A stretch of 4,710 nucleotides of DNA from a virus (lineage: Duplodnaviria; Heunggongvirae; Uroviricota; Caudoviricetes). Shown piece by piece: positions 1 through 4,710 of this stretch (positions within the stretch are counted from its first letter, which is position 1; each line of letters begins with the position of its first letter). Below the pieces are notes generated by a model. That model made no database searches and had not been told where the DNA came from. It saw only the letters and a program-made list of their open reading frames with translations. The position numbers and the translations under genes were made by a program. The stretch lies in IMG/VR virus record IMGVR_UViG_2917393062_000001, positions 1 through 4,710 of that record; one strand, written 5' to 3'.

Positions 1-69
1 TATCTCGTGATCTCTTGAATCTCTGCTGGCGATAGCGTTAATTCGTACATGTGGTCACGTGCCTTACAG

Positions 70-108
70 CATGACCGCCGTCAATATAATCCGGAGATGG
101 CGGTCATG
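70..108. repeat. Hairpin-forming inverted repeat (catgaccgcc 70-79 / ggcggtcatg 99-108, 19-nt loop) overlapping the stop codon of the exonuclease gene
   Basis: 10-bp perfect arms; the distal arm contains the TGA stop (104-106). No U-tract follows on the minus strand, so it is not a canonical terminator. Confidence 0.6.
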
Positions 109-2590
109 GTTGAACATTAAAATCAGCCTGATTTGGGATCAGTTTTTGCCAGATTGCTGAAACTTGTTTTGCCTGGTGGCGTGCATCATCGAGTGCATTG
201 TGAGGTACACCTTCGAATGGAATAGCCGTCCTGACATCGAAGTCCAGGGCTTTTCCCAGCTCAACGATTGTGCGCACATCGCGATCGTTGTAGTAACGCC
301 ACGGGCAGGGGATCCCCTGCCGTTCATATGAACGGCGTAAAATCACATTGTCGAAGTTGGCTCCATTTCCCCAGATTTGGACAAAACTTTCGCCGGAGTT
401 TTCGTTGATAAATTCCCGTAATTGCAGTAGAGCGTCATCTAACGGGATTTCATCGGTAAAAATGGCAGATTGCGCTTCGCGTGATTGCTTCGCCCACCAC
501 TTTATTGCTTTCCGGTCGATGATTCCGCCAGATGTTTCCAGATCGATAGCTTTGCTGAACTCCGGTCCCATCTCTCCGGTTTCGGGATCAAAAAATTTAC
601 CGCCAATAGAGTTGATTGGCGCATCAGGATTTGTTCCCATCGTTTCAAGGTCGACCGACAGGTGACTCCATACTCTGCTGGTGGATGTGGTTTTATGATG
701 ACCGTTCACCTTAACTAAGGGATCTGTCGCCACGCCAGTTTCACTACCGCTGGAGTGGTGATGATCACCGACAGCATTCTCCTTGTGAGGATGTTCAGCA
801 CCTTCCATTTCTTCAGGATTATTTTCCTGAGCTTCAACCTGATTTTCTCCATTGAATGTTTTCTGATATGTCGCGTCGCCCATCACCGCGCCACAGTCAG
901 GGCTGTTGCCGCCGCCGGTCTGATCGCAGGCGGTGCAGATCTTTTCCGGTTCCTGTTGCGCTACTGGTTCAGGTTGTTTCGTTTCTGGCTCGTTTTGTTG
1001 CGTATTTGGGCTGTTTTGTTCCGCTTTCTGGTCGTTCTGTTCCGTTTCTTGCTGGTTCTGGTTCACAGAATCGCGGGTCTGGATCCCCTTAACCCATTTC
1101 GGATCATTCGGGTCGCTAATCCCTGCAACAAATTCACCACGTGATGCAGCGAGCAACTGATTGGCGTCAGGCTGGCTGATATTGGCTGCCTGCATAATTT
1201 TGTTTACTTCGTCAGCGGTAACTTTTACCGGCTCTGGTTGTGCGGTCGTGTCAGATGCACCAGTATTTTGTTGTGAACCTGAGTATGTGCCGTTTTTGCG
1301 GGCAAAATATTCTTCTTTCGTGATTTCAGTAGCCCCCGCAGCCAGCGCCCTGTCCAGGCCAGAAAGTTTGTTTGCGCGACCGTATTTTTCGCCATCCTTA
1401 TCGGTGAAGAGGAAATAGAACGGCCCCTCACGCTCTACAGATGGTTCGACTTCCACTTTGCATTCGGTTTTTTCGTTGTCCGGAATTGCCGTTTCCACTG
1501 CATCAGCTTCTGGTACTGGCGACGGGAGAGTATTAGTTGTGCTCTGATTTGTTCCTTCATCTTCAAATACGCCCTTTGTAGTCAGGTATTCAGTAATGTA
1601 TTTGCTCAGCGCCACGGGATCCTTGTGAATGTCGATCGGACGTTCACGAACAAGACCAAAAATCGTCTGACGAGTGTAGCGAATGGCATCAGGCTGTTTG
1701 CGCATTGATGCGGAGATGCGCTTCCAGTCTTCGCGATCTTTGGCGATAACTTCATTTTTTGCCCAGCGGTGGATGTTGCCGTCAATGTTTCCGGCATCCA
1801 CGTCTCCAGGCCAGAGAGCGTAGGCCAGTTCGTCGTCCAGCGTTTTCCATGTCTGCTTGTATTCGCGACGAATGGTAGCAGTGACAGGGGGGATTTTTCC
1901 CGCCGGGTTTTCAGTGTGCTGTCGGTTGACTTTGGCGCGGGCAAGATCAACAACAGAAGTATATGCACCACCTTCTTTGCGCTCCTTTTCCAGGCGTTTT
2001 TTACGGTCGAGAAAATATGCCTGAACGTCGGGCCATTTGGCGGTTGGTTTTAAATCACGTCTGGCATCGTTGATGTATTCAATCTGACGTTCCGGATACA
2101 TGGCGTTAATTTCTTTAGTCCGGATAATTGCCTCTGCGAGGTGTCCGTCAAAGGTCATCATGTCGTCATCGCCAAGAAGCCCGCTTGCGTTGATGACCAT
2201 ATCCACGGTGACGTTTTCATGTGCGCCAAACTTAACGAGAACAGCGGCCTGTTTGTCGTCGGATAACTGATCAAAGTTAACAATTTCTGTATTCGGCTCT
2301 GGTTCGACCGGGACAAAGGAAGACGATCCCTCATCCCAGCGGTTTTCCTGCATATATTCGGTATCCCAGGAATCAATGGCAGGGCGGGGCATGCCAGGTT
2401 TATCCTCACAGACAAGAAATTTATAAGCGCAGTCCTGAGCTGCCGGATATTGCTCCAGGAATTGCCATGCAAATTTTGCACGGGCGCGGCGCTCGTCGCC
2501 GGCTTCAATGGCAGTGGCTACAGCAACTGCACCTTCTTCCTTTATTGCCTGTTCGTCCGGAATGGCGGCGCAAATAAAGACTTTACTCAT
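104..2590 (-). CDS. Large prophage exonuclease (828 aa), RecE-related mosaic: uncharacterised N-terminal region, Q/N/E/P-rich linker with a Cys cluster, C-terminal DnaQ-like (DEDDh) 3'-5' exonuclease domain
   Basis: Uninterrupted 2487-nt ORF. ATG at 2590-2588 is preceded by GAGG 10 nt upstream (minus strand ...aatGAGGttaaaacaaaATG). C-terminal motifs read directly from the translation: Exo I VDLET (D647/E649, nt 644-652) followed by INSIGG; Exo II GNGANFD (D747, nt 350-352); Exo III HNALDDA (H797/D802, nt 185-202). The central segment (LLAASRGEFVAGISDPNDPKWVKGIQTRDSVNQ...CTACDQTGGGNSPDCGAVMGDATYQ...) closely resembles, from memory, the linker of Rac RecE (exonuclease VIII). Internal ORFs on either strand look like low-complexity junk. 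Confidence 0.85.
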   Translation of the reverse strand: MSKVFICAAIPDEQAIKEEGAVAVATAIEAGDERRARAKFAWQFLEQYPAAQDCAYKFLVCEDKPGMPRPAIDSWDTEYMQENRWDEGSSSFVPVEPEPNTEIVNFDQLSDDKQAAVLVKFGAHENVTVDMVINASGLLGDDDMMTFDGHLAEAIIRTKEINAMYPERQIEYINDARRDLKPTAKWPDVQAYFLDRKKRLEKERKEGGAYTSVVDLARAKVNRQHTENPAGKIPPVTATIRREYKQTWKTLDDELAYALWPGDVDAGNIDGNIHRWAKNEVIAKDREDWKRISASMRKQPDAIRYTRQTIFGLVRERPIDIHKDPVALSKYITEYLTTKGVFEDEGTNQSTTNTLPSPVPEADAVETAIPDNEKTECKVEVEPSVEREGPFYFLFTDKDGEKYGRANKLSGLDRALAAGATEITKEEYFARKNGTYSGSQQNTGASDTTAQPEPVKVTADEVNKIMQAANISQPDANQLLAASRGEFVAGISDPNDPKWVKGIQTRDSVNQNQQETEQNDQKAEQNSPNTQQNEPETKQPEPVAQQEPEKICTACDQTGGGNSPDCGAVMGDATYQKTFNGENQVEAQENNPEEMEGAEHPHKENAVGDHHHSSGSETGVATDPLVKVNGHHKTTSTSRVWSHLSVDLETMGTNPDAPINSIGGKFFDPETGEMGPEFSKAIDLETSGGIIDRKAIKWWAKQSREAQSAIFTDEIPLDDALLQLREFINENSGESFVQIWGNGANFDNVILRRSYERQGIPCPWRYYNDRDVRTIVELGKALDFDVRTAIPFEGVPHNALDDARHQAKQVSAIWQKLIPNQADFNVQP

Positions 2591-2683
2591 TTTGTTTTAA
2601 CCTCATTACAGATTTAAGGGTGAACAAATCCCTGCCATTGCTGGCATATAAAAATGAAACCGGATATTTATTACGGTGCTGGT

Positions 2684-2875
2684 TTAAAGCCCTGCCGGGA
2701 CTTCGTTATTATCCATGCGAATAACTTTATCAACCGGATAACAGTTGCCGGGAATTTTCTGTTCCGCTGCGGCAGCCATGCACTCTTTCATTGAACCATA
2801 TATACCCGTAACCACATCAACCGGTTCGCCCGTATTAAGAAAAACGGTCAGAGTGAGAGCAATAGCAGTATTCAT
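2684..2875 (-). CDS. Small hypothetical protein (63 aa) with a hydrophobic, signal-peptide-like N-terminus (MNTAIALTLTVFLNTG...) and two Cys
   Basis: ORF in the same frame as track ORF 2684..2929, but I prefer the internal ATG at 2875-2873 because it has AGGA 8 nt upstream and overlaps the upstream stop as ATGA (translational coupling). The longer 81-aa version has no comparable ribosome-binding site. Confidence 0.5.
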   Translation of the reverse strand: MNTAIALTLTVFLNTGEPVDVVTGIYGSMKECMAAAAEQKIPGNCYPVDKVIRMDNNEVPAGL

Positions 2876-3060
2876 TGCCAGTATCCTTTTTGCATCAGGC
2901 GTGAACGGGCCAGCATTGAAGCAATGCATACCTTATTTAATAAATTCGGTTCGCGCTTTATCTGGTTAATGGCATCTTCAATAAACTGTTTTTTGCCAGT
3001 AATAACGCCAATTTCAAAACGAGTTTCAGGCGTAGTGGAATTGAGTAATAACGTTTCCAT
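2872..3060 (-). CDS. Small hypothetical prophage early protein (62 aa)
   Basis: ORF with ATG at 3060-3058 preceded by GAGGA (plus-strand tcctc 3068-3072) 7 nt upstream. Stop TGA overlaps the next ATG (ATGA at 2875-2872). Same orientation as and immediately upstream of the exonuclease gene, as for the small kil/racC-class genes of Rac-like prophages. No family recognised. Confidence 0.5.
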   Translation of the reverse strand: METLLLNSTTPETRFEIGVITGKKQFIEDAINQIKREPNLLNKVCIASMLARSRLMQKGYWQ

Positions 3061-3077
3061 TATCGCGTCCTCAGGAA

Positions 3078-3222
3078 TGAATTTTGTGATGCGGTGCCTG
3101 GTGCCTCCAGGTGACGTTAACCAGTTAACAATTAACGCCGGATGTATAAGGAGTTTCGTTACGCCAGTAAAAGGTCACTTTACTGTTTTAACTGAGCCGC
3201 ATTCACCGCATCACAAAATTCA
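3078..3222. repeat. Perfect 19-bp inverted repeat, arms tgaattttgtgatgcggtg (3078-3096) and caccgcatcacaaaattca (3204-3222), separated by 107 bp
   Basis: Exact reverse complements, checked base by base. The proximal arm ends 18 nt upstream of the ATG of the 62-aa gene (3060). Confidence 0.8.
3116..3136. repeat. Cluster of three TTAAC motifs (two full GTTAAC palindromes at 3116-3121 and 3125-3130, plus ATTAAC at 3131-3136)
   Basis: acgTTAACcagTTAACaaTTAACgcc read directly; lies inside the spacer of the 19-bp inverted repeat. Confidence 0.6.
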
Positions 3223-3223
3223 C

Positions 3224-3269
3224 TTTAAAAAGGGCGGGTATCACAGGGAAAACAAAACGGATACCCGCC
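3224..3269 (-). terminator. Terminator-like hairpin in the leader of the leftward small-gene/exonuclease operon: 10-bp GC-rich stem (ggcgggtatc 3233-3242 / gatacccgcc 3260-3269), 17-nt loop, then TTTTT on the minus strand
   Basis: Perfect 10-bp inverted repeat. On the minus strand the stem is followed by cTTTTTaaag (plus aaaaa 3227-3231). The orientation is such that it would stop or attenuate leftward transcription entering the operon. Confidence 0.4.
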
Positions 3270-3422
3270 AAAAGGTAATCAACATGGGTTGTTGTAGCTG
3301 ATTGCCACAACCGGAAGCGCACGGACTAAGATGCCGGCGGCACGCAACAGAGGGAGAAGTGACTTCGCCGTGCGCTTTCGTGTTGTGTGCCTGCTTTTAA
3401 CCACGTCAGGCGAGGTGGTTCC

Positions 3423-3462
3423 TGTTATTCCCCAACAACAAGAAATTTGTATAATCCGGATA
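3423..3462 (+). promoter_or_regulatory. Candidate sigma70 promoter for the plus-strand zinc-ribbon gene: perfect -10 TATAAT at 3450-3455 with TG immediately upstream; weak -35 (TTATTC/TGTTAT around 3423-3430)
   Basis: TATAAT read directly at 3450-3455 (tttgTATAATccgg), 35-60 nt upstream of the candidate start codons. The -35 is poor, so activity may depend on the adjacent TG or on a factor binding the flanking direct repeats. Confidence 0.4.
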
Positions 3463-3478
3463 TCCCCAACAACGAGAA
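3429..3478 (+). repeat. 16-bp direct repeat tccccaacaac(a/g)agaa at 3429-3444 and 3463-3478 (15/16 identical, 34-bp period) flanking the TATAAT -10 element
   Basis: Read directly; the two copies bracket the -10 hexamer at 3450-3455. Confidence 0.7.
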
Positions 3479-3513
3479 GAGTATGTAACGTGATAGTTGA
3501 GTTCTCAGCAGCA

Positions 3514-3945
3514 ATGTCGGCAATCAAAGAAACTGCGGTAATGGCAAAGGGTATTCTGAATGCCAAAAATCAAACTGAGATAAATTCCGCTGTCAGCGAT
3601 ATGCTTTCAAAACTTACGTCTGTTCAGTTTGAATGCGTATCGCTCATTGAGATGGTGCGCTCTTATCAGGAAGAAGCCGCATCTCTCAAAGCAAAAATTG
3701 CAGAGATAGAAGACTTTCAGCAACAGGCGGAAGGTTACAAACTTAACAAGCTTGATTCTGGAACTCTTGTGTATTCCAAGAAGCAATTTATAGGCGATAC
3801 TGAGATAACAGTGCATCTTTGCCCACAATGTTTTGGAAAAAAGGTAATATCTGTACTGCAACCAATGGAAATAATGCGCCTTGATGCTCATTTTCGTACT
3901 TTTTGCCCCGCTTGCAATAATAAGTTCTGGATGAACTCAAGATAA
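3514..3945 (+). CDS. Coiled-coil / zinc-ribbon protein (143 aa from ATG 3514; 151 aa if in-frame GTG 3490 is used); candidate accessory (exclusion/defence or regulatory) moron
   Basis: Only convincing plus-strand ORF. Translation is protein-like, whereas the antisense ORFs (3279..3566, 3607..3891) are W/Y/F/C-rich junk. The N-terminal ~75 aa are heptad-like and charged (SLIEMVRSYQEEAASLKAKIAEIEDFQQQAEGYKL). The C-terminus carries HLCPQC...(25 aa)...FCPACNN, i.e. CxxC-x25-CxxC. GC is about 40% by hand count of a 60-nt sample, versus about 53% in a sample of the exonuclease gene. A perfect TATAAT lies at 3450-3455. Start codon uncertain: no strong SD before ATG 3514 or ATG 3541; GTG 3490 has a weak GAGAAGAG 8 nt upstream. 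The 204-aa track ORF from 3331 runs through the promoter and repeats and is rejected. Confidence 0.65.
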   Translation: MSAIKETAVMAKGILNAKNQTEINSAVSDMLSKLTSVQFECVSLIEMVRSYQEEAASLKAKIAEIEDFQQQAEGYKLNKLDSGTLVYSKKQFIGDTEITVHLCPQCFGKKVISVLQPMEIMRLDAHFRTFCPACNNKFWMNSR

Positions 3946-3990
3946 TTAACCGCTTAATAAGTTGGGACTATCCAGATTTTTAAAGAACAT

Positions 3991-4014
3991 GCCGGATGCT
4001 TATCCGTGTCCGGC
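3991..4014 (-). terminator. GC-rich hairpin (gccgga-N12-tccggc) between the convergent 40-aa gene and the zinc-ribbon gene; possible terminator for leftward transcription; REP-like motifs
   Basis: Stem gccgga (3991-3996) / tccggc (4009-4014) with a 12-nt loop. On the minus strand it is followed by aTGTTCTTTaaaaa (moderately U-rich); on the plus strand no T-run follows. Contains GCCGGATGC and TTATCCG, which echo the E. coli REP consensus, but it is shorter than a canonical REP. Confidence 0.3.
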
Positions 4015-4063
4015 GCCCGCACTTCATCTGTGGAGAAGTGCTTGAGCTCATTGGTCAGTAGTT

Positions 4064-4186
4064 TTAATCACTCGCGAAACTGGAAAGCGCCTGTTTAAAC
4101 TCACTGAAGCTGAGAGCTTCTTCGCCTTCGGCAAGGCCTTCGAAGTATTCTTCGTAAGCCTTTTCCATGATTGCGTCGAAATCCAT
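4064..4186 (-). CDS. Tiny acidic hypothetical protein (40 aa: MDFDAIMEKAYEEYFEGLAEGEEALSFSEFKQALSSFASD); alternative in-frame starts GTG 4195 or ATG 4228
   Basis: Hand translation of the minus strand (not in the supplied track, too short). ATG at 4186-4184 has AGGTGA 5 nt upstream and lies 1 nt after the stop of the 51-aa gene (TGAtATG). Followed by a GC hairpin at 3991-4014. Position and size match the second tiny gene downstream of the repressor in Rac/Qin-type prophages (ydaG/ydfB class), but the sequence itself is not recognised. Confidence 0.4.
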   Translation of the reverse strand: MDFDAIMEKAYEEYFEGLAEGEEALSFSEFKQALSSFASD

Positions 4187-4187
4187 A

Positions 4188-4343
4188 TCACTCACCTGAG
4201 TTTCTTTCCAGCCAGCGACGGGCACCATTTTCGGTTTTAAACGTTTTGCTTTTGGTATACGTCATCGCGGTGAACGTACCGTCCTGGTTAGGAAACACGC
4301 CGTATGCCAGAGATTCGTTGTTGCCAAGATCGATAGTATCCAT
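4188..4343 (-). CDS. Tiny prophage immunity-region protein, 51 aa (MDTIDLGNNESLAYGVFPNQDGTFTAMTYTKSKTFKTENGARRWLERNSGE), YdfA/YdaF-like
   Basis: Same frame as track ORF 4188..4436, but the start is placed at ATG 4343-4341, which has GAGG 6 nt upstream (aaatGAGGtcaacATG). The track's ATG at 4436 lies inside the predicted promoter spacer. Size (51 aa) and position directly downstream of a DicA-like repressor match the ydfA (Qin) / ydaF (Rac) class as I remember it; not verified by search. Confidence 0.55.
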   Translation of the reverse strand: MDTIDLGNNESLAYGVFPNQDGTFTAMTYTKSKTFKTENGARRWLERNSGE

Positions 4344-4420
4344 GTTGACCTCATTTCCCCTTAACGCCAGGGTGGCGGAACTGTTTGCTGAGAACACCGT
4401 GCGGTGTCTTGATGGAAGAT

Positions 4421-4449
4421 AATTTAGTTTTCTCATGGTAATAGGTCAA
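4421..4449 (-). promoter_or_regulatory. Candidate sigma70 promoter for the 51-aa/40-aa gene pair: -35 TTGACC (plus ggtcaa 4444-4449), 17-nt spacer, -10 TAAATT (plus aattta 4421-4426)
   Basis: Read on the minus strand: cacTTGACCtattaccatgagaaaacTAAATTatc. The -35 matches consensus 5/6 and the -10 4/6 with ideal spacing. The predicted start is about 70 nt upstream of ATG 4343. Confidence 0.4.
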
Positions 4450-4469
4450 GTGTTTTTGATGAGAAAACT
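4426..4469. promoter_or_regulatory. Perfect 11-bp inverted repeat (agttttctcat at 4426-4436, atgagaaaact at 4459-4469; 22-bp spacer) bracketing the -35 element; candidate repressor operator
   Basis: Arms are exact reverse complements and sit on either side of, and partly within, the predicted promoter immediately downstream of the DicA-like repressor gene. Confidence 0.45.
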
Positions 4470-4477
4470 CAATGTTT

Positions 4478-4516
4478 AATGCAAAACAAAGCCAATACAT
4501 TGAAATGTAAGGCTTT
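4478..4516 (-). terminator. Candidate intrinsic terminator after the DicA-like gene: composite hairpin (aaagcc/ggcttt outer stem, tacatt/aatgta inner stem) followed on the minus strand by GTTTTG
   Basis: Plus 4488-4516 is aaagcc-aa-tacatt-ga-aatgta-a-ggcttt. On the minus strand the hairpin is followed by ggcTTTGTTTTGc (U-rich), about 20 nt after the repressor stop codon. AT-rich stem, so strength is uncertain. Confidence 0.35.
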
Positions 4517-4536
4517 AAAATTTGTGAAGGAGTGGG

Positions 4537-4710
4537 TTATTGATGTTTGTTACGTTTGCGAGCTTCTAGTAGCTCGGTAAATAGGCGATTAAAATTCTCA
4601 ACACGGGCACGGAGTTCGCTGATTTGTGCTTGCTGCTCTGATTTTGGAAGTGCGCGATACAATCGCAACATCTCCAACTCATCTTCCGATAAGTCTAAGG
4701 AGCTGTTGAG
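4537..4710 (-). CDS. dicA: DicA-like prophage repressor, C-terminal 57 codons (gene starts beyond the right edge of the window)
   Basis: Minus-strand translation runs open from the window edge to TAA at 4539-4537: LNSSLDLSEDELEMLRLYRALPKSEQQAQISELRARVENFNRLFTELLEARKRNKHQ. This matches, from memory, the C-terminal dimerisation tail of E. coli DicA (..LSPKELELLELFNALPESEQDTQLAEMRARVKNFNKLFEELLKARQR..). The gene is missed by the ORF track because it is partial. Confidence 0.65.
   Translation of the reverse strand, partial: LNSSLDLSEDELEMLRLYRALPKSEQQAQISELRARVENFNRLFTELLEARKRNKHQ

Follow-up and report, generated by a model that had tools for sequence, protein, structure and literature searches.

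What are the two small, overlapping genes that lie immediately upstream of a large exonuclease gene in a 4,710-nucleotide (nt) tailed-phage sequence from Escherichia? The sequence (IMG/VR record IMGVR_UViG_2917393062_000001, positions 1 to 4,710; analysed at full length and hereafter called the window) is the entire 4710-base-pair (bp) contig PDHZ01000044.1 of assembly GCA_004745115.1, from Escherichia sp. E4930. Its best matches in E. coli are only ~86-88% identical over most of its length. A preliminary description, made from the DNA alone, had presented the two genes as an unrecognised and possibly toxic pair, by comparison with Rac-type prophages. Judged by their sequences, the two open reading frames (ORFs) are dicB and ydfD, an already known pair that is present here in a divergent allelic form. 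We estimate at about 0.9 the probability that these are the two final protein-coding genes in an early-left operon of the dicBF type, carried by a Qin-like lambdoid prophage of Escherichia sp. E4930, with K-12-like activities predicted by homology.

Both genes are on the minus strand. ORF1 (dicB, 3060..2872) has an ATG start and a TGA stop at 2874..2872 and encodes 62 amino acids (aa), METLLLNSTTPETRFEIGVITGKKQFIEDAINQIKREPNLLNKVCIASMLARSRLMQKGYWQ. ORF2 (ydfD, 2875..2684) begins with the ATG at 2875..2873 and encodes 63 aa, MNTAIALTLTVFLNTGEPVDVVTGIYGSMKECMAAAAEQKIPGNCYPVDKVIRMDNNEVPAGL. The ydfD start and the dicB stop share the ATGA at 2875..2872, which makes a 4-nt overlap; the junction, ggatactggcaATGAatact, codes for ...G Y W Q and a stop in one frame and for M N T in the other. 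Two Shine-Dalgarno sequences were read from the DNA: GAGGA (3072..3068), 7 nt before the dicB ATG and identical in K-12, and AAGGA (2888..2884), 8 nt before the ydfD ATG and inside the 3' end of dicB, where K-12 has AAAAGGA at the same position. Downstream, a 93-nt spacer separates ydfD from the 828-aa exonuclease ORF (2590..104). The 63-aa product is hydrophobic and uncharged at residues 3-13 (AIALTLTVFL; maximum Kyte-Doolittle hydropathy 2.22 in an 11-residue window) and contains exactly two cysteines, C32 and C45. The sequence bears out in every detail the arrangement first reported for the pair, that is, its coordinates, the ATGA overlap, a Shine-Dalgarno sequence for each gene and the exonuclease just downstream, as well as the hydrophobic start and the two cysteines of the second product.

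The ORF listing also contained an 81-aa form of ORF2 that starts at an in-frame upstream ATG at position 2929. This start was rejected because the extension lies inside dicB in the other frame, K-12 has it open as well, and M1-N2 is kept across the family. The 63-aa start is preceded by a Shine-Dalgarno sequence, its M1-N2 is conserved in 98% of the family, and it is the start that is annotated and was tested in K-12.

Profile searches, which had been proposed as a check, gave a full-length match for the first protein and a near-full-length match for the second. With hmmscan against 24,736 Pfam-A models (E<=1), ORF1 matched DicB (PF05358; 1e-28, 99.2 bits with a cutoff of 27, aligned 1-62 of 62). 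It also matched NCBIfam NF049927, 'cell division inhibition protein DicB', at 125.7 bits, above the curated cutoff of 100, again over 1-62 of 62, and it aligns to all 62 residues of K-12 DicB without gaps and with 60% identity. ORF2 matched DUF1482 (PF07358; 2.8e-19, 69.2 bits with a cutoff of 25, residues 6-61 on profile positions 3-57 of 57) and phrog_1092 (1.2e-35, aligned 1-63 of 63). It is 67% identical to K-12 YdfD, the RefSeq 'lysis protein', in a gapless alignment of all 63 residues, and an identical sequence is recorded under the name 'DUF1482 family protein [Escherichia sp. E4930]'. DicB for ORF1 and DUF1482 for ORF2 were the only Pfam families found for either protein at this threshold. 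Sequence searches of the PDB returned no solved relative of DicB or YdfD, and no defence-system model of PADLOC matched DicB, YdfD or the exonuclease. The profile E-values, the ratios of nonsynonymous to synonymous substitution rates (dN/dS) and the matches in E. coli genomes put the reality of both ORFs far beyond chance.

These results revise the preliminary description on two points. The genes are not unrecognised: both fall in curated families (PF05358, NF049927 and PF07358), their K-12 orthologues have been characterised experimentally, and RefSeq annotates the same pair. The prophage is also of the Qin/dicBF-like type rather than Rac-type. Membership in Kil, KilR or RacC was rejected, as hmmscan at E<=1 gave no Kil-type model for either protein, and the likeness to these proteins is functional and positional only. 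The proposal of a host-directed, possibly toxic pair of the kil class survives by homology to K-12 DicB and YdfD, apart from the unrecognised status that it had been given.

The K-12 DicB protein (b1575, from the Qin (Kim) cryptic prophage) is likewise 62 aa long; its gene has the same Shine-Dalgarno sequence and leader and also lies between the dicF spacer and ydfD, sharing the ATGA overlap with the latter. The two proteins share the motifs M-x-T-L-L, F15-E-I-G-V, E28-D-A-I-N and L40-L-N-K-x-C-I-x-S-M-L-A-R. At the N-terminus the window protein reads M-E-T-L-L-L and the K-12 protein M-K-T-L-L-P, so that L4 and L5 are kept whereas residue 2 is E and not K; segment 20-25 and the C-terminus also differ, and the window protein has one cysteine against three. 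K-12 YdfD (b1576; paralogue family name YebW) has the same length of 63 aa, a hydrophobic N-terminus and the same 4-nt overlap with dicB. Both proteins contain G16-E-P-V-D, C32, C45, the core Q39-K-I-P-G-N-C-Y-P-V-D-K-V-I and a P-A-G-L C-terminus. The N-terminus is less hydrophobic in the window protein (Kyte-Doolittle 2.22 versus 3.17 in K-12), and region 21-27 differs. Many E. coli copies of YdfD have 67 aa, owing to a 4-residue C-terminal extension, whereas the window protein has 63.

The functions of the K-12 proteins are documented. DicB inhibits cell division, with filamentation as the result (PMC6832061, PMC4967827). Via ZipA it brings the MinC that it binds to the septum and the Z ring, upon which MinC depolymerises the Z ring and the cells filament; it also keeps lambda DNA from entering through ManYZ, an effect that depends on MinC (PMC6832061). 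Its N-terminus is essential, and L5A abolishes toxicity, while residue 2 can be substituted and the last 8 aa can be dispensed with (PMC4967827). E. coli lyses rapidly when YdfD is expressed, as PMC8835842 relays from Masuda et al. 2016. Co-expression of DicB or SulA prevents this lysis (PMC8835842), hence YdfD lysis needs active division. YdfD binds IspG, and lysis is rescued by ispG overexpression or by the IspG product; both termini of YdfD are required for lysis, the C-terminal domain alone keeps some killing activity, and Cys mutants still bind IspG (PMC8835842). The features required in K-12 are all present in the YdfD of the window: the hydrophobic segment 3-13, C32, C45, N2 and L63.

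By homology with K-12, the window operon would be transcribed from a DicA-repressed promoter upstream of ydfA. DicB would bind MinC and bring it to the Z ring through ZipA, leading to disassembly of the FtsZ ring and to filamentation, and DicB may in addition block phage DNA entry through ManYZ. YdfD, with its N-terminal hydrophobic segment and an acidic C-terminal domain that carries two invariant cysteines, would rapidly lyse dividing cells, by the reported route of IspG binding and starvation for isoprenoid (undecaprenyl) precursors. The ATGA overlap suggests that translation of ydfD is coupled to that of dicB. Since YdfD lysis needs division and DicB offsets it, such coupling would prevent the lysis protein from being made without its brake. 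A toxin-antitoxin pair was considered and rejected, because DicB offsets YdfD lysis only indirectly, via the division stop, as SulA does.

Several points weigh against this explanation. The proteins are only 60% (DicB) and 67% (YdfD) identical to those tested in K-12, and DicB differs from its K-12 counterpart in region 20-25 and at the C-terminus. The IspG mechanism comes from a single study without enzyme kinetics, and it leaves both the signal-peptide-like N-terminus of YdfD and the invariant Cys pair unexplained; the Cys mutants still bind IspG. Coupling is deduced from the ATGA overlap only, and ydfD has its own Shine-Dalgarno sequence. Lastly, a contig of 4.7 kb is too short to tell an intact prophage from a cryptic one.

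Small proteins of similar effect are known from other phages. Lambda Kil and Rac KilR are functional analogues of DicB, as they are small early-left lambdoid proteins encoded near recombination or exonuclease genes that block the Z ring and cause filamentation. According to PMC3961180, lambda Kil is also ZipA-dependent. In contrast to DicB, which acts via MinC, Kil acts directly on FtsZ/ZipA, and there is no sequence relationship between them, the Pfam scan at E<=1 having given only DicB. YdfD resembles the single-gene lysis proteins phiX174 E, Qbeta A2 and LysM in being a small protein that causes lysis through a block in cell-wall precursor supply and not through degradation of the wall, and phiX174 E also has an N-terminal hydrophobic segment (PMC8835842). 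It differs from them in its reported target, IspG of the methylerythritol phosphate pathway and not MraY, MurA or MurJ, and in its setting, the early region of a tailed-phage prophage, beside a division inhibitor and outside the phage lysis cassette.

In order to evaluate how widely the pair is distributed, a 731-bp region around it was used as query against 5426 complete E. coli genomes. The region was matched in 4653 of these (~86%), and in 3685 of the 5426 a single place covered at least 80% of it. The median was 2 places per genome and the maximum 9, and the E. coli matches listed were all annotated 'DUF1482 family protein | dicB'. Moreover, 42 phage records match the window, including the phage genomes Tritos, mEp460_ev081 and HannyBb, which places the module in phage genomes as well as in cryptic prophages; in Tritos dicB and ydfD are annotated by name. 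Conservation of the pair in related prophages, a second check that had been suggested, is therefore found in K-12 Qin, in Tritos, in E. coli FDAARGOS_1077 and in most E. coli genomes. Compared to K-12, dN/dS is 0.48 for dicB and 0.25 for ydfD, values that indicate purifying selection. In an alignment of 121 sequences of the YdfD family, C32, A36, P42, P47, V48, K50 and I52 are invariant and C45 is present in 99%.

DicB of the window belongs to a distinct allele group (METLLLNSTTPETRF...), which shares 98% identity with E. marmotae DicB and 76-89% with several E. coli DicB proteins. Being 60-67% identical to K-12, this divergent group could serve to map the interfaces of DicB with MinC and of YdfD with its target. 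The coding DNA of dicB and ydfD is only 75% identical to K-12. The flanks, judged by eye, appear ~90% identical or better (the 2591..2683 spacer and the dicB leader); the only flank that was counted, the 20 nt before the dicB ATG, matches K-12 at 18 of 20 positions. Lambdoid mosaicism and module exchange typically show this pattern, in which the junctions are conserved and the module between them diverges.

The wide retention of the operon bears on what this dicB allele is selected for. It may be maintained mainly for superinfection exclusion, by keeping out the DNA of ManYZ-dependent phages, rather than for a lytic takeover of division. This possibility, which we hold tentatively, is compatible with the preferred explanation and agrees with the MinC-dependent protection that K-12 DicB provides against lambda through ManYZ (PMC6832061) and with an operon that most E. 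coli genomes have retained, frequently more than once. Against it, the PADLOC models gave no match, and the phenotype requires induction of the operon.

Upstream of dicB, the 150-nt spacer that separates the dicF position from dicB (3225..3076, minus strand) is a highly structured leader, with a minimum free energy of -59.3 kcal/mol (z = -7.5). A closing stem of ~22 bp ends ~4 nt before the dicB Shine-Dalgarno sequence, and conservation of the leader with K-12, Tritos and FDAARGOS_1077 is high. Comparison with the Rfam family STnc100 gave a weak, sub-threshold score of 27.9 bits (gathering score 47). RNase III processing has been described for the dicBF mRNA (PMC5069750), and the leader is probably the RNase III substrate of that description.

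The leader also touches on the annotation of dicB. Several database entries for DicB are 90-100 aa long, with the leader translated and the start set inside the structured leader (3061..3147 here). The contig's own gene call for dicB is of this kind, at 91 aa, and no ATG, GTG or TTG is found between the upstream stop (3177..3175) and the ATG at 3060. An exact look-up of the 62-aa DicB sequence returned no entry, the contig carrying the 91-aa version instead. K-12 DicB is 62 aa long, and the entries of 90-100 aa look like over-extended starts; as there are many of them, they deserve a flag in the databases.

Between ydfB and the leader, at 3276..3227 on the minus strand, lies an element with a strong hairpin and a T-run (-18 kcal/mol, z = -5.0) that occupies the position of the small RNA gene dicF. 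Its letters are GGCGGGUAUC...GAUACCCGCC CUUUUU. The element aligns with K-12 dicF with a 9-nt deletion and a different loop, and is positionally homologous to it. The Rfam DicF model (RF00039, gathering score 48 bits) found no match in the window at E<=1, while the positive controls scored 76.7 bits (K-12) and 72.5 bits (Tritos). The same variant is present in E. coli FDAARGOS_1077, where it too stays below the gathering score of the DicF model. When pairing with the ftsZ ribosome-binding site was estimated crudely as a duplex, K-12 DicF reached -38.5 and the variant -24.6, the latter worse than shuffled sequences. This crude prediction suggests that the variant pairs more weakly with the ftsZ ribosome-binding site than K-12 DicF does.

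From these observations and those on YdfD, two departures from the K-12 picture can be envisaged: that YdfD-family peptides are inserted into the membrane or exported, their Cys pair acting at the envelope and the cytoplasmic IspG model being incomplete, and that in this allele group DicF has been replaced by another terminator-embedded small RNA without ftsZ targeting. We consider these readings unlikely. In the event of such a replacement, division would be inhibited by DicB alone, and the RNA regulon of the operon would differ. The identity of dicB and ydfD is unchanged in either case.

The first of these ideas can also be put more specifically, YdfD acting at the envelope and not on cytoplasmic IspG, with an N-terminal anchor or cleavable export signal, a periplasmic disulfide between its cysteines and an envelope target. 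The first 13 residues are indeed uncharged and hydrophobic, and they are followed by (N/V)-(T/S)-G and then E-P, a pattern reminiscent of a -3/-1 cleavage motif. Cys mutants retain IspG binding even though the family keeps C32 and C45 invariant, and the IspG evidence includes no enzyme assay. On the other hand, a positively charged n-region is absent and the hydrophobic run is short, at ~11 residues; the C-terminal domain alone partly kills, and ispG overexpression or the IspG product rescues lysis. The AlphaFold2 prediction of YdfD, made from a 34-sequence alignment, is a low-confidence model (predicted local distance difference test, pLDDT, 63; predicted template modelling score, pTM, 0.27) that is too poor to judge whether the cysteines are close to each other. 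Taken together, we regard an envelope target as improbable. The 'signal-peptide-like' start noted in the preliminary description stands as a feature of the sequence; the published target of YdfD, IspG, is placed in the cytoplasm.

It is very unlikely that dicB and ydfD persist here only as decaying, non-functional leftovers of a cryptic prophage. The K-12 locus does sit in the defective Qin prophage, with a ydfE pseudogene downstream, and the contig is too short for the integrity of the prophage to be judged. Nevertheless, both ORFs of the window have their full length, and the start, Shine-Dalgarno sequence and stop of each are intact, dN/dS is below 1 for both genes, the downstream exonuclease is intact at 828 aa, and phage genome records carry the same pair. 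Finally, the notion of a novel, unrecognised host-takeover effector pair, to which the shortness of the genes, the PHROGs label 'unknown function' for both families and the bare RefSeq name of ORF2 could have lent weight, is refuted to near certainty by the full-length membership in curated families, the characterised K-12 orthologues, the synteny with K-12 and the presence of the region in 4653 of 5426 E. coli genomes, where the matches listed are all annotated as dicB with a DUF1482 protein.

The locus itself therefore has little discovery value, since the dicB-ydfD module of Qin-like prophages is textbook knowledge and the region occurs in most E. coli genomes. It does call for a correction of annotation: RefSeq names ORF2 only 'DUF1482 family protein', though its K-12 orthologue is a characterised lysis protein.

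The surroundings of the pair agree with its assignment to a dicBF-type operon. On the minus strand, the window contains in order the 3' end of dicA, a promoter-like site, ydfA, a ydfB-like gene, the DicF-position element, the leader, dicB, ydfD, a terminator-like hairpin and the exonuclease gene. In K-12 Qin the order is dicA, ydfA, ydfB, ydfC, dicF, dicB, ydfD and ydfE (a pseudogene), with dicB at 1649609-1649797 and ydfD at 1649794-1649985, giving the same 4-nt overlap. The dicA-controlled layout is thus shared with K-12, except that ydfC is missing from the window and no canonical DicF was detected there. Phage Tritos and E. coli FDAARGOS_1077 have the same arrangement of exonuclease, ydfD and dicB, again with the 4-nt overlap.

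At the upstream end, a dicA-type repressor gene (4537..4710, minus strand) has its 3' end in the window and is cut by the contig end; it matches NCBIfam PRK09706, 'transcriptional repressor DicA', at 1.2e-20 over profile positions 91-135 of 135. Between dicA and ydfA, a candidate promoter (4449..4421, minus strand) was recognised by consensus match only, with TTGACC and TAAATT separated by a 17-nt spacer. The K-12 promoter dicBp sits at the matching position (PMC10448788). The first gene of the operon is a ydfA-like gene (DUF1391; 4188..4343, minus strand), a 51-aa gene call that matches PF07151 at 1.3e-27 and has the same position as K-12 ydfA. It is followed by a ydfB-like ORF of 54 aa (4064..4228, minus strand), also a gene call, which matches phrog_2061 at 1.7e-31 and corresponds in position to K-12 ydfB.

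At the other end of the operon, a terminator-like hairpin with a T-rich tail (2646..2633, minus strand) lies between ydfD and the exonuclease gene, and its sequence is conserved in K-12. In K-12 a ydfABC-dicFB-ydfD transcript of 1,608 nt has been detected, and none longer, from an operon that is repressed by DicA (PMC10448788). A transcript 3' end at this hairpin fits the 1,608-nt transcript, a link that we infer.

The gene beyond the hairpin (104..2590, minus strand) encodes an intact 828-aa exonuclease of the YdfE type. It matches PF16473 (Rv2179c-like) at 1.7e-62 and, over its full length, phrog_2082 'exonuclease'. The gene call carries Pfam matches to YdfE_N and YdfE_C, and the DEDD 3'-5' exonuclease domain (Rv2179c-like) is C-terminal. 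Assignment as a RecE (exonuclease VIII) equivalog was rejected, with 266 bits for NCBIfam PRK09709 against a cutoff of 1269. The K-12 counterpart is the ydfE pseudogene, which is interrupted by IS2.

A last ORF lies on the plus strand in the position of K-12 ydfC (3415..3945; 176 aa as called, 204 aa when started at 3331). It matches phrog_1244, of unknown function, at 1.7e-47 and has a C-terminal CxxC...CxxC motif. Weak, sub-threshold similarities were obtained to SLATT_5 (E 0.0026) and to the PADLOC model of a DRT-associated SLATT protein (E 0.0065), and the ORF may be a moron or a defence-type insert.

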